From: a virus
Taxonomy: Duplodnaviria > Caudoviricetes
Length of the DNA stretch: 64,000 nt
IMG/VR virus record: IMGVR_UViG_2671180089_000001
Coordinates: 62,325 to 126,324 of that record
Direction: 5' to 3' (one strand)
The notes below the pieces were generated by a model, which saw nothing but the letters and a program-made list of their open reading frames with translations, searched no databases and was not told the DNA's origin. Made by a program: the position numbers and the translations under genes. Shown one piece after another: positions 31,101 to 64,000 of the stretch (position 1 is its first letter; every line of letters starts with the position of its first letter).

Positions 31101-33923
31101 GGGCAGGGTGGCGCCGCGCAGGTGGGCGAGCTCCGCGGTGATCTGCTCGTCCCGCATGCTCTTGGGGTCGTCGGCACCCGGGCGGGGCGTGCCGTCGTCG
31201 GCCGGGGCGTCGAACATCGTGCGGATCTCGCCGCCGCGGCGGCGGGCGAGGACGCTGTCGTACGGCGTGGAACCGCGGCTTTGCAGGCGAAGGTTCTTCG
31301 GCCCGATCGAGTCGACCGTGTCCCACTGGTGGCCGGTCCACACCTCGTCGCCGGGCTGAAAGTCCGTGGTGGCCCAGGTACCGGCCGGCGCGTAGTGCCG
31401 GTCCTTGAGCCGCTCGAGCTGCTCCGGGGTCAGCTCCGGCTTCTCGGAGTCGTCCTGCGGCGCGTGGTAGTCGAGACCCTGACGGTCAAGCCACTCCTTG
31501 AGCTGACGCACCTTGTCCTCACGGCGTGACAGCGTCATGTTGCTGGGCAGGTAGAAGAACCGCGGCTGGCTCCTGTCCCTGCTGGCCTTGAACCCGAGGC
31601 GGCGCAGCACCGCGAACTCTTCGTCGCTGACCGTGCCGTTCGGTGTGGGGAAGCGGACGGTAGTGCCGGTGCCGCTGTGGTCGATCTGGACCTGGTCCGG
31701 GGTCGGTGCCGAGGCGGGGGACGGTTCCTCTTCCGGCCCGTTCTGGTCTGGCGCGTTCGTGTCCCGGTCGTTCGGAGCGTCCGGTGCCGGGGTGTCGGCC
31801 TCCGGGGTGTCCGGCGCTGACGGCTCGCTGTCCGCCGTGTTCGCGGACGGGCTGTCGCCCTCCGGCACCTCGGGTGCGTCCTCGGCAGGGTGCAGGACAC
31901 GAAGTTCCTTATCCGGCGCGAGGAAGTGCTCCCCTCCGTCCTCGTCGACGACGCGAATACGGCCCCGCGAGGTCCGCAGCGGCGGCTCCTTCACTGTGTG
32001 CGTACGCCCGTCGGTGTCGACGAACCGGTCCCCGACTTGGAAGTCGGCCGGCTTGCGGGACTGCACGGGACGCAGCTTGCTGGTGTCGCGGCCCTCAGCG
32101 GCAGCGAACATGTCCGGCGTGCCGAAGGCATCGTCGGCCTGGTCGTCCGGGTTGTCCGGATCGGCTACGAATCGCTGTTGCTCGTCCGGGCTGACGTCGA
32201 ACAGGCCGCCGGGCTCCTCGGCAGGTTCCTTCGGCTTGGGCTTCGGCTCCTGCTTCGGCGTACGGCCGGCGCGGCGAGCCTCCTCCGCCTCGAGGACTCG
32301 CAGGCGGGTGCGATCAACGCCGGACAGGTCGCCGCCGTTCGCCATCTCCCGCTCCATCAGGGAAACGATCTCGTCGCGGATCTCGTCGTCGTTCATGGCT
32401 GACGGGGCCTTGGCGGCGCGGGCTGCGGCCGCGGGCGCGTTGACCTCATCAGGGCTCAAGATGACCCCACCGTCGTCGCCCTGTCCGCTGGGCTTCGCGC
32501 CAGGGGCGTCAGCGGGCGGCGAGTCCACGTCGCCCCTGCTGTTGTCGGGAGCATTCGCGTCTGGGGCGTCGGCGCGCCTCTCCTCGCGGTTGCGCTGCAG
32601 CGTTGCCGCAGCCTCATCGACGCGCTTGGTGTAGTTGTTGTACGCCCGGATTTCCTTCGGGTTGGACTCCTGCCCTTCGCCTCCCGCAAGCGTCCACGCC
32701 CACTCGAGGAGCGCGCGGTGCGTCTCGATCGGCGCGGTCACCTTGAGCGTGCCGTTACGACGCCTTGTGGCCTCGGTGAGGGCCTTCCGCGTATCCGGGT
32801 CCTCCATGGCCGCGGTCTCGTCGACGCTCAGAAAGTCGGCGAGAGCTTCCGGCATGGTCAGCGTGACAAGGCCCTCAGGGTCGTCCCAGTTATGCCTCAG
32901 CGGCTCATCGGACGGGTCCTGGTCCGCGGGATGGTTCACGTCCGGGGCCTCGGGCTTCGGCGCGTTCGCCTCCGCCTCCCACTCCTGGCGGGTCCGCTTG
33001 ATGACGGTCTGGATGTTCTCGCCCTTGGCAGAGCGCCAGGTGCTGGCAGTTTCGTCGAGATCGGGTGCGGAGAAGTCGAATCCGCCGTCCGTGCTGGGGG
33101 ATCCGCCGGTGTTGCGGTTGAGCTGCCGGGCGAACTCGCGGGCTTCGTCCGGGGTGGCAAAGTCGCCGGCCGCGTCCATGCGCTGTCCGGTGCCGGTGGC
33201 AGTGAGGTACCAGCGGCCGGTGGAGTCGTCCTGGAGGGCGATCAGGCGACTGTCGTGGGTGACCTCGAGGTGGTCGTCGTCGCCCGCAACGGACCGCAGG
33301 AACTGCGCCATCTGTGGCTTCTGGCCGGGCCGGTCGGCGAGGTCGAGGAAGTGCTGGCGGACCGCAGCGGTGTCACGGAACCGGCCAGGACCGTGGCGCC
33401 GGTTGGGCAGAGCGCGCACGTTGACGGGCAGCTTGCCGTCCTCGGGCTCGTCCCGGTCGTCGTCGTCCTCGGGCCCGGCGGGGTCGTCGTCGTCCCCGAT
33501 CGGGCGGCCGCGGTCGTCGGCGTCGTGCGGGTCGTTAGGGGTGTCCGGGTCGCCGTCGTCGTCCCGGGCAACGCCGTTGCCGCGCCGCGGGTCGCTGACC
33601 CGCTTCTCGTCCTCCTCCTGGACCTTGTTCTCGCTGTCGGTCGGTGCGGAGCCGTCCGGCCGGGCCACCATGGACACCCACTTGGCGCTGGTGGTGTGCC
33701 GACGGCCGTTGAACTCGTTCGGACCGGTCTGGTCCTGAACGAGGATGCGGTCGTTGGGAAGGGCCCGGACGACGCGCGCGAGCTTGCCGCCCCAGAGCCT
33801 GACGGTGCCGCCCGTCTCAATAAAGCGGCCCTTGCTGTCCCGCGGATGCAGGGCGGGATTCCACCTACGGCGGGCGGCCTTGACCTCGAACTCAGCGTGC
33901 TCAGCGGCGGGGCGATTCTGCAT
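22197..33923 (-). CDS. Giant (~3,908 aa) multidomain, probably virion-internal protein
   Basis: 11.7-kb uninterrupted ORF between portal and protease; HPRDSKGRF N-terminal motif; repeated modules; start placed 7 nt after promoter motif. Confidence 0.85.
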   Translation of the reverse strand: MQNRPAAEHAEFEVKAARRRWNPALHPRDSKGRFIETGGTVRLWGGKLARVVRALPNDRILVQDQTGPNEFNGRRHTTSAKWVSMVARPDGSAPTDSENKVQEEDEKRVSDPRRGNGVARDDDGDPDTPNDPHDADDRGRPIGDDDDPAGPEDDDDRDEPEDGKLPVNVRALPNRRHGPGRFRDTAAVRQHFLDLADRPGQKPQMAQFLRSVAGDDDHLEVTHDSRLIALQDDSTGRWYLTATGTGQRMDAAGDFATPDEAREFARQLNRNTGGSPSTDGGFDFSAPDLDETASTWRSAKGENIQTVIKRTRQEWEAEANAPKPEAPDVNHPADQDPSDEPLRHNWDDPEGLVTLTMPEALADFLSVDETAAMEDPDTRKALTEATRRRNGTLKVTAPIETHRALLEWAWTLAGGEGQESNPKEIRAYNNYTKRVDEAAATLQRNREERRADAPDANAPDNSRGDVDSPPADAPGAKPSGQGDDGGVILSPDEVNAPAAAARAAKAPSAMNDDEIRDEIVSLMEREMANGGDLSGVDRTRLRVLEAEEARRAGRTPKQEPKPKPKEPAEEPGGLFDVSPDEQQRFVADPDNPDDQADDAFGTPDMFAAAEGRDTSKLRPVQSRKPADFQVGDRFVDTDGRTHTVKEPPLRTSRGRIRVVDEDGGEHFLAPDKELRVLHPAEDAPEVPEGDSPSANTADSEPSAPDTPEADTPAPDAPNDRDTNAPDQNGPEEEPSPASAPTPDQVQIDHSGTGTTVRFPTPNGTVSDEEFAVLRRLGFKASRDRSQPRFFYLPSNMTLSRREDKVRQLKEWLDRQGLDYHAPQDDSEKPELTPEQLERLKDRHYAPAGTWATTDFQPGDEVWTGHQWDTVDSIGPKNLRLQSRGSTPYDSVLARRRGGEIRTMFDAPADDGTPRPGADDPKSMRDEQITAELAHLRGATLPEGNDPAARAVRRQVTARIRALNDAQSERTFARHRDEVSRRERAGLVRDPARLARLKGEQVQGRDGTLIGAVYKDTKGKWVFVDRDGRTPTSEKYTSRAAAITALNKLTDRRNQRAGEDWKHSAWDDVQPGDTIRVPELGRLEGARVRTVTGWSEPLQVSEIRRGDMGHLHITGSRDGEDVELDVPRTDATFGASKPGTVPEPDRSEAGGGMDWRQMRPDDFGQDERPTAHQDQNRPRPDDELGTPDLFAHGAPDSPEVAPTPESPEAAAAPGAPDASSAPEAPRTAPDAPIRETSPADMTDDDIKEELEELQAWQSRHVSSNGEGPRIQGNAVVALSPVANRRHVLNEEQRNRDNTRRDREEKEKKKQERTEALARAEIGKRNEDGAYPVTVDGKDAGTVGQLARKWRYTNADGQGSPDHYPSRAEAVAALVRNRDVRRENADEDARRERARSAAPEGWALGDRGDVAENDIIRVPVTRQDGNGRPYPVGWRQPVRVNSVNRNDNGTMVLSVSNLDGSRSSISPVFLSHPGDTFAWANDRTRPEPTPAWRHELRTRMADIGDDVATLQRREGLQDPERIQRLQDLIQRVSRGETDDLQGDLRQIRDEAAWLESQFDDPDLELPYETRRTRSWATAARMKAERDLRYPDFQNTGGDTNGPDAPDPDAPTPDAPSAPDEDRAHRARGLFGEGMNAVGGDSLPEMQELDDRLGRADSADDRDAELRDVADRMDALAEQYELAGPQGELAADRFRRAARIARGEQDDRDERLGDDERQDDDGNGPDGESNSDRNDTTSTPDSEDDDQQNGQDEDQAPEGEDDQGEDAQRQGDEESRRQRRDADPDGDATDPDGEPDTGGAGAPGAPGDGGDSNGDQGDDADGPEGGDDDQDVPEDEDDTDEGDEESEDERRRRRRRRRNRRGGNGGPGGGGPGGPGGPGLPRLRLPDFNAPDGAGGGDGGDGNGGHGDGDAANGRGRSPRPRARHRDVDSLRNAWRTGDGLTPGEDTPERRAHLSALADREGLALSPNGGLATYPERQDDGNTVWRFAQARNGTNLPGITLTSDDPEEARALAGRFEELTDRNGDPFDWDVEGGRSASVAAWRDGEGRNLPQALRAVQDDYDQERAGAFALPEDLTTLDDSQLEAAYVQGLGPEDELRVMAEMDRRDGYVDERIRAAVPETPPANADEAEREGRLMDEALGFGDTDVTQPAPVTPGGLRREFDALDEERFQAAMQATGGRMLSPEAEAQGIDPRTLFSGGKYSNKRAKELASPELNHWFDGDDETPGNGRLTYTQYRQREADRALRAEFADIDEARYLAAIAATNGYFFRRQHEAGPIDERELFSGGSMSQFDRWKDVASEELQDWFDANGGRLTFNQFKQSRRDNERTARDLHEEEQRRADEAGDSEDTVTFTADDVAPAPSGDVESAEAATFRFGGHDKMREFADRAELRPVGDGETVWLDGQQIGHISNVYRSDPNRNSVWHARPFFGPDNDQSSRSESRDTAIANLVVRALRDGPVDPTNPSEDVWRTVTAHLADRMWELPESLLDNPEVRDRHDRLSALLDAFRDHRSPSGNLRDDLVQARDDFARLHDLLPATRRTERQRSRLKNRSYWAGRLLDGLGDPESDRQRPHGNDPDGDRQPPRGDDEPQGDSNAPSPAVPAPDEPVNAPEDTPRPQAEPTPEPDPEPIDGQPAHWARVEDLVPGDMVRMSGTTKGGRPVQRAGYVHTAPVLVDVTRRGRTEQMWRTWVTENSDGTGASGNVYTSANATAARAEAPDDVVPGSPASGAQAALRSGDLPNQIPADRDGRGLFPGSTVTGTGDREGTVTGATDTTVSVHWSDGNDDTALSPTTLSVADGQRPDGWTADGHRVTTQNVVSDTDGGLLGPVDDVDGDNVTITTTDGTITRSAGDLRVTGEVRDEAPDTAPVTGIDEPAAADLKDGDVVLLDLDGHLATVAITSPPSRDGDRVTLQYADTTTGEMGEINVDARAILPRAQGPDGGAPDLGPDDAPEPDEDLTVHPAPRRVDPVTGPTLDPDLDSSDRNLIGDHADGPEDDPDAQQAAVRITADLPVTREQAAALAAQLRAAADPTTVEGRAALRAADHLDRAAGRTPPAGLDRPRPANAAQIGEGDLVAMPDERRGDQMRVFRVIDVENGPGGVRSFLLEDEDQQWRRRVVHGAMPVWQLPEAEPDPVNPPDVDDADGAPDAEGGPGPNPPGGPVRRVGSDPAAAPTTPVAPTTPDPAATPDEPTAPIAHVRPGSLRVGDVIDAPVSRTGYQFNGHRRLTIISEPHRNGWWMQLTGMDEDGNVHDFGLHSGRAVNVYDRNRPTPALPPAGVPRDPNQAAQGDVDRIVSDHGRALAARIIDEAIAGTEPPGDIHALRDQIAQRLTAEALRDARQAVRGDGSAALDATGLTGRDRGAAQRRLRDARNQAHADTVRAALRTINDLEPLDGESNEDLAARARDLLRLIPDQIAGRPSTTDPDADPDVTTAVTGHADDAVNALLQQLQAAGVDPGDAERLARILTQQMAGSRQATARRIAAQVAAANPDAGRQPGLLARIVAFLVRMAKRLAELVKAGARKIAEKYRSSRERLRRLRAFLGRMVRRVRELPESRRLARLHRAVNLPDADGDSLAARISHWAGLMPEPGRFGQSQRRVTFWRPTTWGQLAAGRLPDRSDRVQWAPDRAADGGPGLTTLRHMAALRAAGNDVDQDVTRRLSAVLGDDFGDDPHATLQHADDYVAASERRVVNLQAARSGATIPDDEDLEIEITAARSELASARREYEDLRARYAAAVPDAVAAALADVRDMGPDGANAIVFGPGTDPDAERAVRGVQRLIPRAWLNTPEARRMTALNGNQGRYEPEGQRVTVADLADEGLGTAGHALAQHFARHLGDLDAAQRAFWFGQTHTGRPGARRMRPSAIDRLLRRQQTQPETGDTLARSVQAMFNGDWYQDDDLRAFLLGLMATR

Positions 33924-33930
33924 GCCGCGG

Positions 33931-33961
33931 ACCATGCACACCGGTGACCGTTAACGTCGCG
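33931..33961 (-). promoter_or_regulatory. Late-promoter-like motif
   Basis: CGCGAC GTTAAC N13 CATGGT, 7 nt before ATG. Confidence 0.78.
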
Positions 33962-55650: not shown

Positions 55651-56309
55651 CCGCCCTCGCAGTCGAGGCCCCGGCCGCACCGGAGTGGTCCGGCCGCATG
55701 GTCGTGCGCGCCGCGGGCCGCCCCGTGCTGCACATTGCGGGGGAGGGCGTGGCGGCCCCCGCCGTGCCGGTCTTCACCGTGCCTCTGGAGTGCGCCCCTG
55801 ACGCCGAACAGGCGCCGGGCGTACGGCCGTGGGACGGCCCGGTCACCGAGTCGTCTATCTGCCCGGCCTGCCTGCGCGCCCTTCGCGGTGAGCCGGAGCC
55901 GCCGAGGCCCCGGATCGTCCCCGCCGGCGTCGCCGAGGAGCTGCCGGTTCCCGCGGCCGCGCCGGACCCGCGCGGGCGGCACCTGCGCGCCGTGCCGGCC
56001 CCGGTGACGTACGCCGAGGCGCCTCTGCCCGCTGCGCACGCGGGCCGTCCGATCACCTGGTCCAGGTGGACCGCGGCCCCCGTTATCACTCACCATGACC
56101 CGTCGTGCGAGTGGTGCGGTGACGCGGGCCCCGGCGAGATGGCCGGCGGCCGCCAGGGGCACCCGGCGTCCACGACCGTCCCCTTCCGCCGGTTCATCGC
56201 CTACCGCTGCACCGCATGCCAGGAGATGACCGCGTACGAGCAAGTAGGGACGGATCTCCAGACCATCGCCCACCACAAGTCGCGCGCCCCGAAGGACTGC
56301 AATCGATGA
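55647..56309 (+). CDS. Hypothetical Zn-binding protein
   Basis: CPAC, CEWC and CTAC. Confidence 0.6.
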   Translation: MTALAVEAPAAPEWSGRMVVRAAGRPVLHIAGEGVAAPAVPVFTVPLECAPDAEQAPGVRPWDGPVTESSICPACLRALRGEPEPPRPRIVPAGVAEELPVPAAAPDPRGRHLRAVPAPVTYAEAPLPAAHAGRPITWSRWTAAPVITHHDPSCEWCGDAGPGEMAGGRQGHPASTTVPFRRFIAYRCTACQEMTAYEQVGTDLQTIAHHKSRAPKDCNR

Positions 56310-56578
56310 CCACCGTTGCCGAAGCCCCCTCCCTGTCCGAGCTCGAGCAGCGCCTGGCCCTGGTCGCGTGCGGCGAGAACAACCGGCCCGGGAAGACCCG
56401 GGCATGCGACTCCTGCCGCCGGAAGGGCCAGGTCTTGCTCCGCATCGCCTCCACCGGCGCCGCCGACGCTCTCGCCGCGGCGATATGCGGCACCGGCGAC
56501 CGCCGGGTCAAGACGTGCGATCCGTGCAGGCAGAAGGCTGTACGGATGATCCGTATCTACAACGGGGAGACCGAGTGA
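56306..56578 (+). CDS. Small Cys-rich protein with internal repeat
   Basis: CG...CDSCRRK and CG...CDPCRQK. Confidence 0.6.
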   Translation: MTTVAEAPSLSELEQRLALVACGENNRPGKTRACDSCRRKGQVLLRIASTGAADALAAAICGTGDRRVKTCDPCRQKAVRMIRIYNGETE

Positions 56579-56751
56579 CTACTGCCACTGGCCGCGCGGC
56601 CGTGTTCCTGGCTCCCGCTGGCACCCCGACCACCTCGGCCGACGACTGGACGCGCGTCGGCTACATCGAGTTCGTGTTCGAGGCCGCCACTGATCCGCGC
56701 CCGTCGACGCCGGAGCTCCTGGTGGCGGAAGCCGTTGAGGAGCCGCGGTGA
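56575..56751 (+). CDS. Small hypothetical protein
   Basis: GTGA overlap; VFLAPAGTP....W..VG. Confidence 0.5.
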   Translation: MTTATGRAAVFLAPAGTPTTSADDWTRVGYIEFVFEAATDPRPSTPELLVAEAVEEPR

Positions 56752-57084
56752 CGCGCCCAGGGAACCACGAGCTCGCCCCCGAGGAGCTGTTCGAGCTGCT
56801 CGGGGGCGAGTTGCCGTCCACGTTGCCTCTTGAGGGTTGGCGCACGATGAGGGGGTCGAGGAACATCGGCGTCAGATCGTGCGGCTGTACGCTCCGTGAT
56901 CACCGGTGCCGCAGATAATGCGCCGATATCTGCGGCACCGGTAACACCGGCTGTGGCTACGCCTGGCTGAGAGTGCGCGAAGCGACCCCGTTATCTGCGG
57001 CAAGGCCCTTCTTCGGGGTGTCGCCCCCATCGCGCTCTCGACAGCCCCCAGTCTGGTGTCACTGTCGCCAACCGAGGAGGAGCC

Positions 57085-57480
57085 ATGGCCGCGCTCCGGT
57101 ACGTTCTCGACATCACTCAAGACGATGTCAATGCCGCTCTCGCCTGCGTGTCCCAACACGCTCGGGCAGAGAAGGCGGGCAGCCATGCCGCGAACCTCGC
57201 CTTCAGCCTGTACACAGTCGCCCACTCCCTTGGTGAGCGAATCCGCACCCGGCTACAGCTCACCGCCGCCGGACACCATGACCACGACACCGTCGTCCAG
57301 TTGCGGAACGAATGGAACGACCTGATGTGCTGCGTCGAGCCCTGGCAGGGCCAGGAGCTATTCGACGAGCAGCGATTCCGCACGGTTGAGCATACGAATG
57401 AGGCCGGTGCCGCCTTCCGCTCCTACGCCCTCAGCCAGGCCAGGAAGTTCGCGGCCGGGACCGTCGCTCCGCCGCTGTAG
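57085..57480 (+). CDS. Hypothetical protein
   Basis: GAGGAG RBS; WNDL....EPW pattern. Confidence 0.6.
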   Translation: MAALRYVLDITQDDVNAALACVSQHARAEKAGSHAANLAFSLYTVAHSLGERIRTRLQLTAAGHHDHDTVVQLRNEWNDLMCCVEPWQGQELFDEQRFRTVEHTNEAGAAFRSYALSQARKFAAGTVAPPL

Positions 57481-57651
57481 ATCGGGCCGTAGCGCACGAT
57501 CTGGCGTGGATGTTCCTCAACCCCCGATGACGCTGCACTGCCAGGTCGACGCGATCGGCCGGTCGGATCGGCACGAGGACCTCGTGAAGCTCGAAGTGTC
57601 GTTCCCTCCGCCGAAGCAGGTGCGCAGAGGCAACCCGATGCCGAACGCTTG

Positions 57652-57676
57652 TAATTACAGTCCACGACTGTAATTA
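57652..57676. promoter_or_regulatory. Palindromic operator overlapping promoter of HTH gene
   Basis: TAATTACAGTC-cac-GACTGTAATTA, 7 nt before the GTG at 57684. Confidence 0.75.
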
Positions 57677-57683
57677 TGCCTTC

Positions 57684-58457
57684 GTGATTGTTCCTCAGCT
57701 CTCAGACTTTCTCGCCCCTGCCGACATCGAGGTCCGCATGGAGGGTTTCGGCTACGAGCAAGGCACCGCCGTGGTATGGCTCCAGGACACATGGGCCGGG
57801 CCGGGCAACCCCGCCACGTTCCGCCGTGGTGTTGAGCTCCGGTCCTATCTGGACGGTGAACACGTCAACCGCACACGGATCGAAGGCGCCACCGATCTGG
57901 ACGATCCGCAAGTGCAGAAGGCAGCCGCAGCCTTGCAGCGCGACTTGATCGCCACCCACGGACAGCGGTACCTGGAGCCAGGACGAGCCGAGATCGAGCG
58001 CTTCGGCGACCCCCAGCATCTGATCGCGAAGAACGACGACCTCAGGGCCCACTTCTATCGGCGGGTCAAGGAGGGCCACCACACGCCGAAGGACCTGGCG
58101 CTGGTCGCCGAAGTCGAGGCCAAAGAGGCGGAGCTCAAGGACCTGCGACGCCAGTACGCCATCGCACTCTGGCGCTACCTCGCCCACCTCTACCAGCACG
58201 GTATGAGTCCTACCGGTATCGCCCGCTGGACCGAGCAGACCGTCGCCGCAGTGAAACGGCGGATCGACAACGTGTCCACCGCCGGCGCCGCCGCCATTAC
58301 CGGGGTCGAGGCGAAGACCTGGGCCGCTTACGTCGCACGGGGGCAGGCCCCCGCCGCAGACGATCATGTGGGGCGCGAGCCGGTCTGGCACCTGTCAACG
58401 GTGCTGGCCAACCTCGAATCTCGCCCCGGCGCCCCGGGCCGCCCGCCGAAGCCATGA
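57684..58457 (+). CDS. DNA-binding protein with C-terminal AlpA/MerR-like HTH
   Basis: AAAITGV..KTW.AYVARGQAP..D...GR.PVW...RPG. Confidence 0.7.
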   Translation: MIVPQLSDFLAPADIEVRMEGFGYEQGTAVVWLQDTWAGPGNPATFRRGVELRSYLDGEHVNRTRIEGATDLDDPQVQKAAAALQRDLIATHGQRYLEPGRAEIERFGDPQHLIAKNDDLRAHFYRRVKEGHHTPKDLALVAEVEAKEAELKDLRRQYAIALWRYLAHLYQHGMSPTGIARWTEQTVAAVKRRIDNVSTAGAAAITGVEAKTWAAYVARGQAPAADDHVGREPVWHLSTVLANLESRPGAPGRPPKP

Positions 58458-59710
58458 CGGCTACCACACGACGCCCCGGAGAACGCCGCACGGGCCCGCC
58501 ACCGAAAGAGGTGGCGGGCCCTGTTGCGTACCAAGGACCGCCTGCGATTAAGACTGCGCCCCTGCCGGACGGAATGGGCGTCAACATCGGCCAGGCCGGC
58601 GTTACCGGCGACACCGAGGAGGAGACGGCGCTCCGCCGCGCCCTGGTGGCCCTGGGCGTGCCCGCGGCCGACGTCTCCCGAATCGTGTTCACCGACACCG
58701 GGTGGTACGCGATGGTGACGCTCCCGCCGGGCAAGAACACGTCCGCGCAGGTCGTCATCGCCAAGCGGCAGCAGCTCCAGGCGAACCTCGACCTCCCCGG
58801 CCGGCTGCGCCTCTCCGAGGGCCCCCAAGCCAACCAGCTGATGGTGCGCCTGCAGACCGCCGACCCGCTCGCCGGAGACGGGATCCCGTGGCCGGGCGTG
58901 CGCGTCAGCTCGATCGAACAACCCATCCCGATCGGCATCTACCCCGACGGCACGGAGATCCTGGTCGACCTGGTCGACGGGCACGTCCTCATCGCGGGTG
59001 GCACGAACAAGGGCAAGTCGGGGGCTGTCAACGTCCTCGCCGCGAACCTGGTGGCCTGCGACGACGTCGACATCGCGGGCATCGACATGAAGCCCGGCGC
59101 GCTCGAGCTGGGCCCGTGGCAGCCGAACATGGTGGCCCTGGCCGACGATGCCGACACCGCCCGCCAGGTCCTGGTCTGGCTCCGATCCGAGATGACGCGG
59201 CGCGGCAAGTACCTGGCGACGCTGCGCGGCCCCAACGGGGAGCGGGTCAAGAAGTGGACCCGCGAGCACGGCAAGTACATCGTCCTGATCATCGACGAGC
59301 TCGCCGAGCTCCTCCGCCAGGCGCCCGACGTCGTCTCCGAGCTGATGACGCTCATGCAGGTGTCCCGCGCGATGGGCATCCGCATCGTCGCGGCGACCCA
59401 GTCGCCGAGCGAGCAGGCGTTCGGCGGCAAGGGCACCGACACGCGGCAGCAGTTCGGTACGCGTATCGGCCTGCCGGTGAACGAGCCGACCCCCATCAAC
59501 ATGATCATGGGAACCGGTGCGTACGGGAAGGGCTGGTTCCTCGCCGGGGCGAGTCAGCTCGTCAGCGCGATGACGGGCGTGGGCAGTGCGGCGGCCGCGA
59601 TTGCGCTGCTGCTCCTGGCCTGGAAGATGTCGCCCTCGAGCCGGGCCGGGAAGACGGTGAACATCACGAACAACAACCGGTGGGGCGGCCGCTCCTCGAC
59701 GCGTGTGTGA
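58454..59710 (+). CDS. FtsK/SpoIIIE (TraB-like) ATPase, apparently truncated and fused
   Basis: Walker A GGTNKGKS, IDMK, Walker B LIIDE and ATQ motifs; abnormal hydrophobic C-terminus. Confidence 0.8.
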   Translation: MTATTRRPGERRTGPPPKEVAGPVAYQGPPAIKTAPLPDGMGVNIGQAGVTGDTEEETALRRALVALGVPAADVSRIVFTDTGWYAMVTLPPGKNTSAQVVIAKRQQLQANLDLPGRLRLSEGPQANQLMVRLQTADPLAGDGIPWPGVRVSSIEQPIPIGIYPDGTEILVDLVDGHVLIAGGTNKGKSGAVNVLAANLVACDDVDIAGIDMKPGALELGPWQPNMVALADDADTARQVLVWLRSEMTRRGKYLATLRGPNGERVKKWTREHGKYIVLIIDELAELLRQAPDVVSELMTLMQVSRAMGIRIVAATQSPSEQAFGGKGTDTRQQFGTRIGLPVNEPTPINMIMGTGAYGKGWFLAGASQLVSAMTGVGSAAAAIALLLLAWKMSPSSRAGKTVNITNNNRWGGRSSTRV

Positions 59711-59721
59711 CCCTGCCGACC

Positions 59722-59752
59722 CAAGGGCCCTGGCCGCCGGCCGGGGCCCTTG
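59722..59752 (+). terminator. Stem-loop after FtsK-like gene
   Basis: CAAGGGCCC...GGGCCCTTG. Confidence 0.5.
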
Positions 59753-59791
59753 TCGTGTCCGTGTCGGCGCGGCGTGCGATGATCCCGCGTC

Positions 59792-60259
59792 ATGGGGAGA
59801 CACATCTGGGGGGAGACGGTCGGCGCGTTGGTCCTGGCCGTGACCGTGGCGGCCGCGAGCGGCTGCAGCTCGAGCGACGGGGACTCCGAGAAGCCGGCCG
59901 CGAAGCCGACGCCGAGGGTCCTGAGCGTGGGCAAGGCGACCACCACGTTCCAGGCCGCGGTCGAGAAGTTCGACGCGGACGGCGGCTGCCTCGAGCAGGC
60001 GCCGGGGACGTGCTGGGAGCAGATGCAGGCGCTCATGAAGCCTGCACGCGACCTGCGGAAGGCGGCGAACGCCGACAAGAAGACCGGCCCGGAGTTCTGG
60101 TCGAAGGCGTACGCGCTGATCGACACCATGGAGGACGGCATCGCGGTGGGGGAGGACAAGGGCGTCCCGGCCGGCGGCGCGAGCATGACGAACCGGGACG
60201 ACGTCCTCGGCTCCGCCCACGACCTGTCGGACTGGCTGGACGAGAACCCCGTCGCGTAG
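59792..60259 (+). CDS. Lipoprotein
   Basis: Hydrophobic signal with AASGC lipobox. Confidence 0.7.
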   Translation: MGRHIWGETVGALVLAVTVAAASGCSSSDGDSEKPAAKPTPRVLSVGKATTTFQAAVEKFDADGGCLEQAPGTCWEQMQALMKPARDLRKAANADKKTGPEFWSKAYALIDTMEDGIAVGEDKGVPAGGASMTNRDDVLGSAHDLSDWLDENPVA

Positions 60260-60311
60260 CAGTTTCCGCAGCTCGCACCGCACTGTCGGTGGGCTGCTCT
60301 AGGCTCCGCCC

Positions 60312-60809
60312 ATGCCGATTCACTACACGACGTTCGTGATGCCTGGCGCAGTGATGGGGATGCCGCACGACACCCCGTTCTTCGTGCTCGGAGCCGAGTT
60401 CAAGGAGGAGCTCGGCAGCATCCCGGCCGTCACCTCGTTGCACCGCATCGAGAACCAGATGATGCCGTACAGCCACGCGTCGATGGTCCTGGGCGAGGTT
60501 CCCGTGAGCGACCTCTGGGCGACGACGTCGACTGAGCAGTACGACGGCCGGGCAAAGGTGGTGATCCTGCGGGATCCCGTACCGCACGATGTCGATACGA
60601 AGTACGCGGAGCTGACGGAGGGGGTTCTCGGCCCGGACCTTCCCCCGTGGCTGGGCCTGATGCTGGCCGGGGAGATCCGTTCGTACTCCAGGGACGTGCC
60701 GGTGACGGTGGGGAGGGACTTCGCCGACGTGATGAGCATCGGCATCGACCCCTCAGCGCCCACGACGTTCCCGGCCTGGGCGCACCAGGTCATCCCGCCT
60801 GGGAGCTGA
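60312..60809 (+). CDS. Hypothetical protein
   Basis: 165-aa ORF, TAGGCT -10-like hexamer just upstream, terminator downstream. Confidence 0.55.
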   Translation: MPIHYTTFVMPGAVMGMPHDTPFFVLGAEFKEELGSIPAVTSLHRIENQMMPYSHASMVLGEVPVSDLWATTSTEQYDGRAKVVILRDPVPHDVDTKYAELTEGVLGPDLPPWLGLMLAGEIRSYSRDVPVTVGRDFADVMSIGIDPSAPTTFPAWAHQVIPPGS

Positions 60810-60817
60810 CCAACTCG

Positions 60818-60854
60818 CGCAGGGGCCCCGTACGCACCGTACGGGGCCCCTGCG
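60818..60854. terminator. Bidirectional terminator hairpin
   Basis: Perfect 17-bp stem CGCAGGGGCCCCGTACG-cac-CGTACGGGGCCCCTGCG between convergent genes. Confidence 0.8.
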
Positions 60855-60859
60855 GCGTT

Positions 60860-61102
60860 CTACGGGCGGGGGAGCCCCCTTCGGCCCGGGGCGGGCCGGT
60901 CGGTACGCTCTACGGTCACCTGGGGGTCTTGCTGGTCGGCGAGGAGGAGCTCGAACACGACGCGTTCGCCGGGGCCGCGCTTGCCCAGTACGCGGGTGCC
61001 GCTCGCCACGAACGCGGGGTGCGCCCGGAGTAGAGGCATCAGCGTCTCCAAGAGGGCGGTGACCTCTCCCTCGTCGTCGCTCATCACGCGGATCTGGGCC
61101 AT
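60860..61102 (-). CDS. Hypothetical protein
   Basis: TGATG-coupled to upstream gene. Confidence 0.6.
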   Translation of the reverse strand: MAQIRVMSDDEGEVTALLETLMPLLRAHPAFVASGTRVLGKRGPGERVVFELLLADQQDPQVTVERTDRPAPGRRGLPRP

Positions 61103-61692
61103 CAGCCGGCCACCTCAATCAGGTCGCCGAGGATGACGCGCATCCGGTCTGCGGTGCAGCCGCACGGTAGCCGCAGGTAGATGGCTTCGACAGGCTCCCC
61201 CTGGTCGTCGGAGACCACGGCCTGCACGTAGTTAAACTCCCGCCCGGCGCACGAGTAGCAGGGCGATTCCTCGTCCTCGTCCTCGTCGTACAGGCCGTCA
61301 TCCATGTCGGGGTCGGTGTGCGGATGTCCGCAACCGTTTTCCGCGTGCTCAGCACGGCCGCAGCCTTCGCACTTGGAGCACACGACTTCGACCAGGAGCG
61401 GGGGCCGGCCACCGTCGGACGGCTGGGCGAAGGCGCGCCCCTCGGCGTCGAGGCCCGATCCCTGGCAGTCGTCGCAGGGGCGGGCGTCGCCCAGGTCGGG
61501 GGCGGCGAGGGGGACGTACAGGTACTCGGGGAGCAGGAACCGGGTGGGGTTGCCTGCCGCGGTGTCCGTCGGCCGGGCGGGCGTGTCGCGGAGGGTGCGG
61601 AGCCGCGCGAGGGCAGCGCTGTACGGGATTTCCTCCCGCGCGGCCAGTTCGCGAGCGCGGCGCTTGAGGTCGTTGCTGACGTGCCGTGACAT
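61102..61692 (-). CDS. Zn-ribbon (CxxCxGxG) protein with short basic N-terminal motif
   Basis: GGAG RBS; CDDCQGSG, CSKCEGCG and CYSC. Confidence 0.65.
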   Translation of the reverse strand: MSRHVSNDLKRRARELAAREEIPYSAALARLRTLRDTPARPTDTAAGNPTRFLLPEYLYVPLAAPDLGDARPCDDCQGSGLDAEGRAFAQPSDGGRPPLLVEVVCSKCEGCGRAEHAENGCGHPHTDPDMDDGLYDEDEDEESPCYSCAGREFNYVQAVVSDDQGEPVEAIYLRLPCGCTADRMRVILGDLIEVAG

Positions 61693-61860
61693 GTGAGTCT
61701 CCGAGGCAGGCCCCACGCTGCCCGCCTGGGTATCAGGGCAAGGGCGACCGTCACGGGCCCTCGCCGGGGTGTACCCGGGTGCCGGTAGCAGTGTCCGGCG
61801 AGCCTTCGACCGTGGTGCCGTCGCTGCGTGGGTAGCGGGTCGGCGGTCTGTGCGGCGTGT
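61693..61860 (-). ncRNA. Candidate structured 5' leader RNA, copy 1
   Basis: CCCACGC...GCGTGGG closing stem; shares blocks with 63661-63825. Confidence 0.5.
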
Positions 61861-61922
61861 CTCCACACTGTGATGCGGGGCCAGCGTAGCCGTATACCCA
61901 TGCATACCGCTAGATTTCCGGC

Positions 61923-62126
61923 ATGACTGAACTGCAGCAACTTCAGTACGTGGGCGGGCCGTTCGACGGCGGCACAGCGCCAGACGACTTCATCGACCGC
62001 ATCGACATGCGCTCCCCAGCGGGCACCGGGGCGTACGTCCTGACCCAGGACAAGGAGACCGACACCCAGGTCTACCGCTGGGAGCCGGAGGGAGATGAAT
62101 CCGCAGGTCAGAAGGCTTATTCGTGA
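61923..62126 (+). CDS. Small hypothetical protein
   Basis: GGPFDG...Y...Y.W pattern; probably leaderless. Confidence 0.55.
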   Translation: MTELQQLQYVGGPFDGGTAPDDFIDRIDMRSPAGTGAYVLTQDKETDTQVYRWEPEGDESAGQKAYS

Positions 62127-62129
62127 GGT

Positions 62130-62160
62130 CGCGACACTAACGTTCCGCATCGCGCACTCT
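62130..62160 (+). promoter_or_regulatory. Late-promoter-like motif (orphan copy)
   Basis: CGCGAC ACTAAC N13 CACTCT. Confidence 0.72.
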
Positions 62161-62211
62161 TCGCTGGCTGCCCCACCCGGGGGAGCGACCCCGAGCACGA
62201 AGGAAGTGCGC

Positions 62212-62631
62212 ATGACTGCAACCTCTTGGACCCCGAAGCTCACCAACGTGGCCGGCGTCGACGGCACGACCGGCACCGGCAAGTACGTGTCGGCGAACGG
62301 CATCTGCACGTTCAGCGGGACGCTCGTGGCGAAGAAGGAGACCCAGGCGGCGTCCAGCGCCGGGTTCGGAATGACGCTGCCGGTTCCGGCCGTACCGGGC
62401 GTCCGCTACACCTTCAACCTCGAGTACGACGGTCGCGACGCCGACAACGGCGTGTGGACCGGTGAGGCGATGATCGCCGCCGGTTCGGACGGCTCGAAGA
62501 TCGACCGTCTGCGCGTGACGAGCGGCTCGAACGGCGCCGCGCTGCTGAACGTCGATCACCTCTACGGTGACGCCGAGGGGGCTGCGGAGGCGGAGATCAT
62601 CACGGTCACCGGCTCGTACCCGACCGCCTGA
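62212..62631 (+). CDS. Stand-alone tail-fibre-tip-like beta-sandwich protein
   Basis: SWTP.L...GKY...G...TLPV.A...TVTGSY pattern; preceded by structural-gene promoter motif. Confidence 0.6.
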   Translation: MTATSWTPKLTNVAGVDGTTGTGKYVSANGICTFSGTLVAKKETQAASSAGFGMTLPVPAVPGVRYTFNLEYDGRDADNGVWTGEAMIAAGSDGSKIDRLRVTSGSNGAALLNVDHLYGDAEGAAEAEIITVTGSYPTA

Positions 62632-62651
62632 CCCAGGGGTCACCCCAAGAA

Positions 62652-62690
62652 CCGAGGGGGCCGACGGACATCTTCCGTCGGCCCCCTCGG
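62652..62690 (+). terminator. Terminator hairpin
   Basis: CCGAGGGGGCCGACGGA-catct-TCCGTCGGCCCCCTCGG. Confidence 0.8.
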
Positions 62691-62708
62691 GCGTTCCCTG
62701 GACCAATG

Positions 62709-62786
62709 CATCTCATCCCATCCCAACTCATCACCCTAAACGAGATGGGATGAGATGGGATGGGATGAGTTCTTGAGGGGATGAGA
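62709..62786. repeat. Pentamer (GATGG/GATGA) repeats in inverted arrangement
   Basis: CATCTCATCCCATCC ... GAGATGGGATGAGATGGGATGGGATGAG. Confidence 0.85.
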
Positions 62787-63078
62787 CCGTGATAAAACGG
62801 GGCCCTCGTACGTCCATGACGGACCAGGAGCGAAGTCCATGAGCGAGCCCACCGCCGATGCCCCGGCCAGGGAGAGCGCAGGGCAAGAGACCTGCATCTT
62901 CCCGGGGTGTGGAGCGCCGAGAGGGCCGAAGAAGGACCCGAAGGCTGGGGTTATCTAGGGTCCGCAGGCACTTCATGCAGGTCAGACGGCATGACTCGCT
63001 GTCAGGCAAGTAAGGCAGGTAGCGTCGGAAACGGTTCGAGCGAACCGTTTCCTGACCCCTGTCCGGCGAGCAGCACCC

Positions 63079-63660
63079 CTATGCGGGTTCGCCGAACTCG
63101 GCGACGTAGGCCGCGTAGTTCTCCGAGAGGACGGCCCGCCCGGCTTCCGCGGTGAGGTGGTCGACCGAGGCGACGACCGGGACCTGCCGATCCTCGATGG
63201 TGGAGGTGATCAGCTCGATCCGGCGGGCCAGCTCGGCGACGACACTGGGAGCCGACTCGACCAGTAGCTTCCCGTCCCTCCACGAGAACCGCGGCGCCCG
63301 GCCGATGCCGGTACTGCGGACCTTCGTGGCCAGGAAGGCCGCGTGGCGGTACGGGAGGTCCGGGTTCTCGGTCAGCAGCAGGTAGACCCGCTCGGTGTCG
63401 CCTCCGTAGCCGACCAGGCCGGTGCACGGCTTAATCGGCCCGCCGGTGTTCCGCGCCGCCACCTCATAGACCCGGCACTCGGTGCAGCGGAAAAGGTCGG
63501 TGCTGCTCTCGTACTCGAACTCGTGGCCGCCGAACCCGTCGTCAGGCTCGGTGACGTCGGGGGCCGGGGCTTCGGCGGTGCGCAGGGCCTGGGTGTACTT
63601 GCCGCCCTGGCGTACGGCTTCGCGGGCGCGCTGCGCGGCGGTGGACTGCTTCTTCGGCAC
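63079..63660 (-). CDS. Hypothetical protein with short basic N-terminal motif and Zn ribbon
   Basis: GGAG RBS, GTG start PKKQSTAAQRAR...GKYTQALR; CTEC. Confidence 0.65.
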   Translation of the reverse strand: MPKKQSTAAQRAREAVRQGGKYTQALRTAEAPAPDVTEPDDGFGGHEFEYESSTDLFRCTECRVYEVAARNTGGPIKPCTGLVGYGGDTERVYLLLTENPDLPYRHAAFLATKVRSTGIGRAPRFSWRDGKLLVESAPSVVAELARRIELITSTIEDRQVPVVASVDHLTAEAGRAVLSENYAAYVAEFGEPA

Positions 63661-63825
63661 GGTCGACTCCAGCCTGGCGGTACTCCCACGCTCCCCGCCG
63701 GCGAATCGGGCCGGGACGGTCTGCTGCATTCGCGGGCCCCGGAGGACCTTGGCCGACTGTGCGCCGGGCGGCGTGGGCGCCCGGCGCAGCGGCGAACGGC
63801 GGTACGCGTCTGGCCGTGGGCTGTC
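63661..63825 (-). ncRNA. Candidate structured 5' leader RNA, copy 2
   Basis: CCCACGC...GGCGGGGAGCGTGGG; TACCGT -10-like hexamer upstream. Confidence 0.5.
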
Positions 63826-63881
63826 CACGGTAGAACACCCCTCTGACAGCAGAGCGAGCGGCGCGCGGCCGGGGCGGAGTG

Positions 63882-63939
63882 CGACTTTGTTTCGGTCGAA
63901 ACGAGGTTGCGCAACTTCGGTTCGGTCGAACCAAGGTTG
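63882..63939. promoter_or_regulatory. Tandem palindromic operators (30-bp period)
   Basis: TTCGGTCGAA cores at 63891 and 63921, each inside an extended palindrome. Confidence 0.7.
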
Positions 63940-64000
63940 AGGGTCGGCACGTATGCACGAACATGCCGTACGTGCCTGAACGACCCGGAGATATCTGTCA

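Follow-up and report, generated by a model that had tools for sequence, protein, structure and literature searches.

A covarying leader RNA and a basic N-terminal peptide form a candidate portable cassette before unrelated genes of actinobacterial mobile elements

Why would two genes encoding otherwise unrelated proteins start with the same ordered sequence blocks in their leaders and with similar basic N-termini? This question is raised by two minus-strand genes, called gene A and gene B here, found towards the end of the virus record IMGVR_UViG_2671180089_000001 from IMG/VR. All coordinates given below are those of the window, the whole 64,000-nucleotide stretch of DNA that we analysed, which corresponds to the last 64 kb of this single 126,324-bp record. 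The original prediction had correctly placed the start codons of both genes (ATG at 61692 and GTG at 63660) and had proposed that a structured leader and an N-terminal peptide constitute together a portable cassette before unrelated cargo, an idea that was borne out, as we encountered it in 41 plasmid records, 87 genome loci and 207 protein clusters. Judged from comparative sequence analysis, leader B (63661-63832, minus strand) is a canonical member of an RNA family of which leader A (61693-61888, minus strand) is a diverged variant, and we consider it practically certain that this family and its fold are real.

The two leaders share more than one sequence block

The 15-mer GGCGGG(C/G)AGCGTGGG occurs exactly twice in the window, at 61712-61726 and at 63685-63699, both on the minus strand. 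When up to two mismatches were allowed, six matches were found in the window for 3.55 expected, showing that this block alone is unremarkable. A repeat search extended it to 26 nucleotides (nt) with 81% identity, and the other blocks that had been listed for both leaders (ACCGCCG, CCCACGC, CAC(G/A)GTCG..AAGG and GGAG) were all present in the order initially given. Both open reading frames (ORFs) stay open upstream of their start codon (to 63828 for gene B and to 61905 for gene A); a coding explanation of the shared 15-mer was nevertheless rejected, since genes A and B do not read this block in the same frame, so that it is not a shared coding segment.

When the window was searched with a covariance model of the leaders (model R1, described below), leaders B and A gave the two best matches, with 132.1 bits and 20.4 bits (E 8e-5), respectively. 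Leader B is one of the 53 leaders used to train this model, so that its score is high by construction, while the other 52 come from other genomes. Based on these sequence comparisons, the likeness of leaders A and B is not a matter of chance. Candidate further copies in the element, with model matches of at most 18.8 bits, the next best in the window reaching 15.7 bits, and with neither complementary loops nor an N-terminal peptide of this type, were taken as false, and a model search of the rest of the 126,324-bp record gave no credible extra copy.

Covariation supports a leader of four predicted hairpins with a kissing contact

From 5' to 3', the element consists of a -10-like hexamer TANNNT, three hairpins (P1, P2 and P3), a variable linker, a fourth hairpin (P4), a Shine-Dalgarno sequence and the start codon. 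In a structure-blind MAFFT alignment of 53 leaders (A2), P1 has 5 bp and a loop AGAYGCGUAC and is followed by a single-stranded CCGCCG, P2 has an 8-10-bp stem of variable sequence that closes a 7-nt loop CCCACGC, P3 pairs GGYC with GGCC around the loop AAGGUCYYYCGG, and P4, which comes after a linker of 20-70 nt, has 5-8 bp and a loop holding GCGUGGG. The structure covaries, as the original prediction would have it, in the alignments of 53 and of 70 leaders. In A2, 89.7% of the cells pair and 19/32 pairs change on both sides; none of 500 shuffles reached any of five measures, and partners slid by 1-3 columns paired at 39-50%. Model R1 (183 positions, 25 bp) was built from A2, and the 70 leaders that were then aligned to it (A5) gave 92.0% of paired cells and 22/32 pairs changed on both sides (0/500 shuffles), values that lean towards pairing for the nested stems, since A5 was fitted to a nested structure.

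The most telling helix is the one formed by the loops of P2 and P4. Since this loop-loop helix lies outside model R1 and since the MAFFT result agrees, its pairing is not owed to the fitting of A5. Its 7 bp are 99.4% paired across the 70 leaders, with six of the seven pairs doubly changed (pair types including AU:59/GC:11, CG:67/UA:3 and CG:61/UG:8/UA:1), and the duplexes formed by a leader's own P2 and P4 loops beat those with permuted partners in 300/300 permutations. The pairing of CCCACGC with GCGTGGG that had been noticed at the outset is thus supported by covariation, but not as the closing stem that it was thought to be: since P2 and P4 are each closed hairpins, CCCACGC:GCGUGGG is a kissing contact between them. 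Altogether, the comparison of leaders supports a fold of four hairpins, in which the P2 loop pairs with the GCGUGGG of P4, the hairpin that immediately precedes the ribosome-binding site. Many of the pairs are G-U pairs, which would give A-C on the opposite strand, indicating that the functional strand is the sense strand of the downstream gene.

The P3 helix is 100% paired in A5, with C-G and U-G in a 36:34 ratio at one pair; its invariance is partly by construction, since the P3 block served as the search pattern, and by direct reading diverged members found with the model carry GGAC...GUCC in place of GGYC...GGCC. In a hairpin test that uses no alignment, the real flanks of P2 and P4 gave 9.8 and 10.5 enclosing pairs, compared with 7.1 and 7.3 after shuffling, a test that discriminates weakly at 70% G+C and on which we do not lean. 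Around the fold, TANNNT is found in the same alignment columns in 57/70 leaders, a Shine-Dalgarno-like sequence (GGAG, GGGA, GGA or GAG) lies within 15 nt of the start in 68/70, and the start codon is ATG or GTG in 68/70. A promoter scan at leader B using an E. coli-type consensus found none.

Leader A belongs to a diverged sub-family (L098-L101, L115-L116 and gene 5 of Streptomyces phage Gilgamesh) that keeps P1, the complementary P2 and P4 loops and the GAAGG of the P3 loop, together with an inserted helix. Model R1 aligns GGUCGAA of cassette A to GGCCCGUG with a 45-nt insertion in between, and the same insertion is found in L098-L101. In A-like relatives, P1 reads GGUGC/GCACC or GGCGC/GCGCC around the same loop motif, which are compensatory variants, and the -10-like hexamer at the matching place reads TAGGGT, TATCGT or TACGTT. 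The parts of both cassettes are listed in Table 1.

A basic N-terminal tag precedes unrelated cargo proteins

The ORFs found behind these leaders almost always start with M(S)PKKQ(S/T)TAxKKARxAARxGxKYTxALR, a tag that contains about eight lysines or arginines and one acidic residue in 27. The N-termini of proteins A and B are indeed related, as originally predicted: B carries the canonical peptide and A carries a variant, SNDLKRRARELAAREEIPYSAALARL, that recurs behind A-like leaders elsewhere. A profile of 33 positions made from 39 N-termini (A3) was run against 1.84 billion representative proteins, and the 207 protein clusters mentioned above are those matched at E<=0.001. Among the best 150 of these 207 clusters, the motif starts at residue 1-3 in 130; of the remaining 20, 19 have it at an internal M or V, suggesting that these genes were called too long. 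Protein lengths in these best 150 range from 41 to 629 amino acids, and 138 of them have no Pfam family, while the remaining 12 match Bac_globin (in three), HNH, WD40, DUF1905, DUF6166, PCMT, DUF6292 or, weakly, a coiled coil. Codons at conserved tag residues vary (GCA 11, GCC 32, GCG 7 and GCT 5 at Ala12; five different codons at Leu26), and this synonymous variation indicates that the tag is under selection at the protein level.

An AlphaFold2 model of gene B, made with 23 homologues, predicts for the tag a helix at residues 8-17, a turn and a second helix at residues 22-29, with a predicted local distance difference test score of 55-64, followed by a disordered linker at residues 31-40 and then by a confident cargo domain. 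Neither gene A nor gene B matched a known DNA-binding family of the ribbon-helix-helix or helix-turn-helix type in Pfam or NCBIfam, at E<=0.1 or at E<=1.

The tag stays with the RNA while the cargo is occasionally exchanged

An intact tag, as judged by its pattern, is found behind 62/70 leaders, and one more leader (L054) is followed by a tag ending in ALH. When five whole genomes were inspected, 5/5 tag matches were located directly after an RNA match, showing that the tag occurs only behind this RNA in the genomes examined. RNA matches without a profile match carry diverged tags of the same pattern, such as VTRYGSNELKRAARKLAATDDIAYTAALRRL or VTKKNRPTAARAARAARRAGTTIPYTALLRAA.

Leader pairs with at least 85% identity (n=50) have related cargo in 43 cases, and the unrelated cargo of the remaining seven pairs, which involve L013, L041 and L083, indicates that the module is occasionally re-used. 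Leaders L012 and L013, which are 91% identical, are found on one contig, about 2 kb apart and in convergent orientation. Beyond a common MPQHQPTS, the two ORFs part ways: one retains the tag and the other runs on into an unrelated protein, a clear instance of a cargo being replaced within the tag. At L024 and L052, a deletion has left P3 fused to the 3' end of a gene B homologue.

Such cargo swaps behind near-identical leaders (7/50 close pairs), with breaks inside or just after the tag, would also be expected if the conserved blocks were DNA signals, such as repressor operators, an origin or a site of recombination for cassette exchange. That P1 is a near-palindrome centred on ACGCGT and that integrase genes are located nearby at some loci would fit with this explanation as well. 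We nevertheless consider it very improbable, since the stems stay paired while their sequence changes (22/32 pairs), whereas a DNA site bound by a protein would keep its sequence rather than its complementarity. Moreover, the G-U pairs would be A-C mismatches on the opposite strand, and the orientation of the blocks relative to the -10-like hexamer, the Shine-Dalgarno sequence and the ORF is fixed.

The cassette is spread over mobile elements of Actinomycetota

The 41 plasmid records were found by blastn with leader B (180 nt) and comprise 37 from Streptomyces, two from Nocardia, one from Kitasatospora and one from Paracoccus, the last of which was taken as a chance match, being located inside a P450 gene. 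In 37 of these 41 records, no annotated feature lies over the element, and at four annotated loci a same-strand gene, encoding a hypothetical protein, a DUF6292 protein or an S-adenosylmethionine (SAM) methyltransferase, is found about 170 nt downstream of the element. Leader A matched seven records. The 87 genome loci were obtained by scanning a single genome of each prokaryote species for exact copies of a 22-nt core (GGYCAAGGYCYYYCGGGGCCCG): they belong to Streptomyces, Kitasatospora, Nocardia, Amycolatopsis, Actinomadura, Nonomuraea, Microtetraspora, Actinopolymorpha and other genera, including members of the families Streptosporangiaceae and Micromonosporaceae, while the few non-actinobacterial matches comprise the core only and have low model scores. 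In the family of one Streptomyces host, model matches at E<=1e-5 were obtained for 12 of 101 sampled genomes (the central one counted), a patchy spread that fits with carriage on mobile elements. From its sequence contexts, the element is found in plasmids, integrated elements and phages of Actinomycetota.

In two Streptomyces plasmids (L001 and L002 / L096), the cassette directly follows parA and a gene of 123 amino acids, and in phage Gilgamesh an A-type cassette is located three genes away from an integrase gene and a ribbon-helix-helix gene. How the cassette is placed with respect to partition or lysogeny modules may matter.

Parts of the RNA also occur without the tag

Seven viral contigs carry a short form consisting of P1, a short joint, P3 and a strong intrinsic terminator, with no P2, P4 or ORF. 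Among the short forms (L108-L114 on viral contigs, and L070), several have a second GGCCAAGG hairpin, and most are located near a contig end. These forms look like free small RNAs presenting AAGG loops, and a rough frame analysis indicated that the next gene is often on the opposite strand. A second form, found in Nocardia (L003, L014, L055, L068 and L071), has P1, P2 and P3 followed by a 15-bp terminator-like hairpin and a U-rich tract, with neither P4 nor tag. On the Nocardia plasmid pIFM12275, it is located next to a divergent integrase gene and upstream of a gene for a SAM methyltransferase that lacks the tag.

The Nocardia form thus keeps a P2 loop without a P4 partner in cis and ends with a terminator, as would be expected if the kissing contact were intermolecular, with a P2 loop, carried by one transcript or by a free P1-P2-P3 small RNA, binding the P4 loop in the mRNA of another cassette. 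The outcome would then be exclusion, incompatibility or dosage sensing between elements, as for the antisense RNAs that control plasmid copy number. Such cross-pairing could take place, as the same loop pair CCCACGC/GCGUGGG is found in 59/70 leaders and in both A and B. We regard this as quite improbable: the loop variants covary within each molecule (11 GC, 3 UA and others) and own partners beat permuted ones, which fits with pairing in cis, and the viral short forms have no P2.

A cis-acting leader with tag feedback as a tentative mechanism

In our proposal, genes A and B would each have a self-contained expression cassette, in which a promoter is followed by a folded 5' leader (about 165-180 nt) and by some 27-32 initial codons for the basic tag, which a flexible linker would join to an arbitrary cargo. 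The folded leader would act in cis after transcription, on translation initiation and/or on mRNA stability, and this part we consider probable. The tag, a basic segment with the shape of a helix-turn-helix fused before each cargo, may then bind its own leader, for example at the P2-P4 kissing complex located beside the Shine-Dalgarno sequence, in which case every cargo would repress its own synthesis in the same manner. Since one basic peptide and one RNA stand before hundreds of unrelated proteins, we favour such a feedback as the simplest reason for their association; this step is read from the architecture of the cassette, and we hold it tentatively, being more inclined to doubt it than to assert it. 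As a whole, a cis-acting leader cassette with tag feedback is our best explanation, to which we give somewhat less than an even chance. In its fullest form, it would describe a portable control cassette whose tag is translated first and binds the kissing loops of its own mRNA, thereby giving a feedback that does not depend on the cargo, and which recombination has spread among phages, plasmids and integrative elements of Actinomycetota for the control of 'dark' accessory genes, the P1/P3 core being an older module that also exists as a free small RNA; all of this together is unlikely to be right in every part.

Several observations weigh against this proposal. The tag had no relative in Pfam, NCBIfam, PHROGs, a PDB profile search (best E 0.96, covering only the nine residues MPKKQxTAx) or Atlas, so that no known RNA-binding family was matched, and the confidence of its AlphaFold2 model is low. 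At 5/70 leaders, the tag was lost to a replaced ORF, with a homology break inside or just after it, and 2/70 leaders are followed by in-frame stops. A tag match was found in 0/5 viral records containing the short form, and the tag-free short and Nocardia forms indicate that the best conserved part of this RNA also serves a purpose in the absence of the tag. Moreover, no switching mechanism is visible, since crude duplex-energy tests revealed no covarying or enriched alternative pairing: there was no covariation of the pyrimidine-rich P3 loop with the translation start region as an anti-Shine-Dalgarno (63/300 permutations as good), with the P4 loop (281/300) or with the linker (197/300), nor of J1/2 with the 5' strand of P4 (37/300), and the 3' side of P3 gave -11.32 kcal/mol with the linker versus -11.52 kcal/mol when shuffled (p 0.31). 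Lastly, a single RNA-library contig spans the leader, a 743-nt one from compost that covers 63337-63848 with about 92% likeness and so holds the leader and gene B in one piece, but it ends at 63848, having passed the -10-like hexamer by about 16 nt; it might derive from DNA, and it cannot show a transcript start. The RNA libraries, kept as contigs, cover small shares of the stretch, and the overlap of three other contigs is limited to 63587-63710.

These observations bring up a different explanation, in which the leader senses a factor acting in trans (such as a protein of the host or of the element, the ribosome or a small molecule) through its P1/P3 core, much as a riboswitch or a protein-binding leader would, while the tag has an unrelated shared job, for example as an anchor to the nucleoid or to nucleic acids or as a turnover, packaging or transfer signal, and is linked to the RNA by adjacency only. 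The occurrence of the P1+P3 core alone with a terminator at seven viral loci without tag, and of the Nocardia P1-P2-P3-terminator form upstream of a tagless methyltransferase gene, argues for such a sensor, as do the highly conserved unpaired positions of the P1 loop, of J1/2 (CCGCCG) and of the P3 loop (AAGGUCYYYCGG). The predicted disordered linker, which parts the tag from the cargo, would also suit it, and riboswitch classes typically join one aptamer-like core to differing downstream platforms. Yet the alternative pairing of a two-state switch was not detected, the cargo genes have no common pathway that would point to a ligand, and an opposite-strand next gene in the short forms suits, as far as the rough frame analysis goes, a free small RNA better than an attenuator. 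In addition, adjacency alone does not explain why every tag in the genomes checked came with the RNA. We take the sensor to be the most serious of the alternatives, although a doubtful one.

Relation to known systems

No family of Rfam 15 explains the leader, in line with what the original prediction had anticipated. In a search of 56000-64000 at E<=10, the only overlap with a leader was CRISPR-DR29 (18.2 bits for a gathering threshold of 39, E 6.6), and at nine loci including short and Nocardia forms nothing fell on the element at E<=1. A description of the element was not found in the literature searched, including with six versions of a 17-nt core sequence. The element, of which neither the RNA (in Rfam 15) nor the tag matches a known family, also appears to be missing from this literature. 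By its sequence features, the element would be a cis-acting structured leader, the fused peptide tag being its unusual feature.

The proposed feedback is analogous to that of autoregulatory leaders of the ribosomal-protein, ThrRS or phage T4 gp32/RegA type, in that a structured 5' leader lies by the ribosome-binding site and a basic segment encoded downstream could bind it. In those systems, a whole protein and an RNA mimic are specific to one family, whereas a tag of about 27 amino acids and its leader are found here in at least 207 unrelated clusters. The kissing contact resembles that of ColE1 RNA I and RNA II, which is also a fully paired 7-nt contact of two hairpins on a mobile element. 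In ColE1, the kissing complex is recognised by Rop (Rom), a small helical hairpin, which is also the shape predicted for the tag; the PDB profile search revealed no sequence likeness to Rop. Unlike in ColE1, both loops are located in one mRNA leader and covary in cis, and the target is a protein-coding gene rather than replication. Pairing of separate transcripts, as in ColE1 or R1, was not found here: both loops are on one strand in one leader, and antisense promoters, sought only by a scan with an E. coli-type consensus, were not detected.

The N proteins of phages lambda and P22 are another parallel, as they have a short, basic, Ala/Arg-rich N-terminal helix that is phage-encoded just downstream of a conserved RNA hairpin (boxB in lambda) on the same transcript. 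In N proteins, RNA polymerase is the target of a conserved C-terminal part, whereas the C-terminal parts are mutually unrelated here and no nut-like arrangement of box A and box B is present. Like riboswitches, the leaders have a covarying conserved core, in which many unpaired bases are invariant and two loops make a tertiary contact, and which is joined to a ribosome-binding site or to a terminator; they differ from them by downstream genes without a common pathway and by the lack of detected alternative pairing, and a fused conserved peptide is, to our knowledge, not a feature of any known riboswitch class. A further comparison is with the conAn antitermination system, which as outlined in its report acts on the establishment genes of the conjugative plasmid pLS20, in long operons of Bacillus plasmids (PMC6294495). 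There too, a regulatory device in a leader serves genes for accessory functions or establishment on a mobile element of Gram-positive bacteria; from this outline, the cassettes described here differ by being single genes or two-gene units.

RNA-antitoxin-like control, as in type III toxin-antitoxin systems, had also been suggested for these leaders and did not hold up. Tandem Repeats Finder (minimum score 30) found no array of the ToxIN type in either leader, its four rows being located outside the leaders at 61158-61287 and 62742-62769. Neither protein belongs to a toxin or defence family: genes A and B matched no ToxN/AbiQ-type endoribonuclease in Pfam or PADLOC, and the cargo is unrelated from locus to locus.

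The family described here is a large covarying RNA family, missing from Rfam, that is carried by mobile elements of the chief antibiotic producers among bacteria. Through it, more than 200 unrelated and mostly unannotated proteins stand out as one functional set, made of accessory or 'moron'-like genes of actinobacterial phages and plasmids that have a promoter-leader-tag unit in common. If the tag does bind the leader, the cassette would be a natural and transferable autoregulation module, of interest for RNA biology and for expression tools in Streptomyces; otherwise, the RNA would still be a handle to find and annotate such genes. An intramolecular 7-bp kissing contact beside a ribosome-binding site is in itself unusual, and the candidate free P1/P3 small RNAs of phages would point to a host partner.

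The two genes and their surroundings

The record, which is classed as a virus record, has 70.4% G+C, and its Pfam matches comprise phage proteins (tail tube, major capsid, prohead protease and portal) together with ParA, SSB, a C5 DNA methylase and an FtsK/SpoIIIE (TraB-like) protein. From this gene content, it is read as a phage-plasmid-like element; among named relatives, Streptomyces plasmids and Streptomyces phage Gilgamesh come closest. A telomere or terminal repeat at the contig end was considered and dropped, as a search of the record for terminal inverted repeats gave none.

Table 1. Parts of cassettes A and B and associated genes, in window coordinates
Feature	Coordinates	Strand	Description
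Gene B	63079..63660	-	193 amino acids; GTG at 63660; tag, linker, cargo domain of unknown function
Cassette B -10-like hexamer	63827..63832	-	TACCGT, 9 nt 5' of P1; presumed promoter element, read from the alignment
Cassette B P1	63796..63817	-	ACGGC/GCCGU, loop CAGACGCGUACC; helix 1 91.9% paired, 2/5 pairs changed on both sides
Cassette B P2	63761..63787	-	10-bp variable stem, loop CCCACGC at 63771-63777; 9/10 pairs changed on both sides; 11 pairs enclose the loop in the local fold
Cassette B P3	63735..63754	-	GGCC/GGCC, loop AAGGUCCUCCGG; most conserved block of the family
Cassette B linker P3-P4	63702..63734	-	length and sequence vary among leaders, about 20-70 nt
Cassette B P4	63673..63701	-	loop GCGUGGG at 63685-63691, complement of the P2 loop; helix 6 92.7% paired, 5/6 pairs changed on both sides
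Cassette B Shine-Dalgarno	63667..63670	-	GGAG, 6 nt before GTG
Cassette B tag	63580..63660	-	VPKKQSTAAQRAREAVRQGGKYTQALR; codons 1-27, conserved, basic
Gene A	61102..61692	-	196 amino acids; ATG at 61692; tag, then cargo with repeated CxxCxGxG motifs
Cassette A -10-like hexamer	61883..61888	-	TACGCT, read from the sequence
Cassette A P1 (weak)	61850..61868	-	GUGU/GCAC, loop GGAGACACGCC; direct reading
Cassette A P2	61817..61844	-	loop contains CCCACGC at 61826-61832; 8 pairs in the local fold; aligned to P2 by the model
Cassette A P3	61756..61811	-	GGUC/GGCC; loop keeps GAAGG and carries an inserted helix CUCGCCGG...CCGGCGAG
Cassette A P4	61704..61727	-	AGGCGGGC/GCCUGCCU, loop AGCGUGGG, kissing partner of the P2 loop; 10 pairs in the local fold
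Cassette A Shine-Dalgarno	61699..61702	-	GGAG, 6 nt before ATG
Cassette A variant tag	61597..61692	-	MSRHVSNDLKRRARELAAREEIPYSAALARLR; codons 1-32; same variant in L098, L099, L100, L115 and L116
80-amino-acid ORF	60860..61102	-	ATG overlaps the stop codon of gene A

Genes A and B have no Pfam, NCBIfam, PHROGs or PADLOC family. The cargo motifs of gene A, CDDCQGSG and CSKCEGCG, are of the CxxCxGxG type seen in DnaJ/anti-TRAP zinc fingers, and its match to anti-TRAP is very weak (E 0.97). The cargo of gene B gave only weak ferredoxin-like matches in a fold search (best E 0.009), which are uninformative. The 80-amino-acid ORF downstream of gene A is probably co-transcribed with it, and the two have their counterparts in genes 6 and 5 of phage Gilgamesh, respectively. 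Directly after this ORF, a perfect palindrome (60818-60854), whose 17-nt arms are 3 nt apart, is likely to be the terminator of the gene A transcript.

Between gene B and a plus-strand ORF (62095-62631) lies a perfect 17-bp hairpin (62652-62690), which adjoins an unusually A+T-rich inverted repeat (62709-62769) with 21-nt arms and 95% complementarity; the pair resembles a bidirectional terminator accompanied by a second palindromic site. Two 29-nt direct repeats with 83% identity (63881-63939), each around the palindrome TTCGGTCGAA, precede the -10-like hexamer of cassette B by about 50-110 nt, close to where the record ends, and could be an operator, an iteron or a partition-like site. Elsewhere in the window, a single ORF of 3,914 amino acids without a Pfam family occupies 22197-33941, between the portal and the capsid-protease genes.

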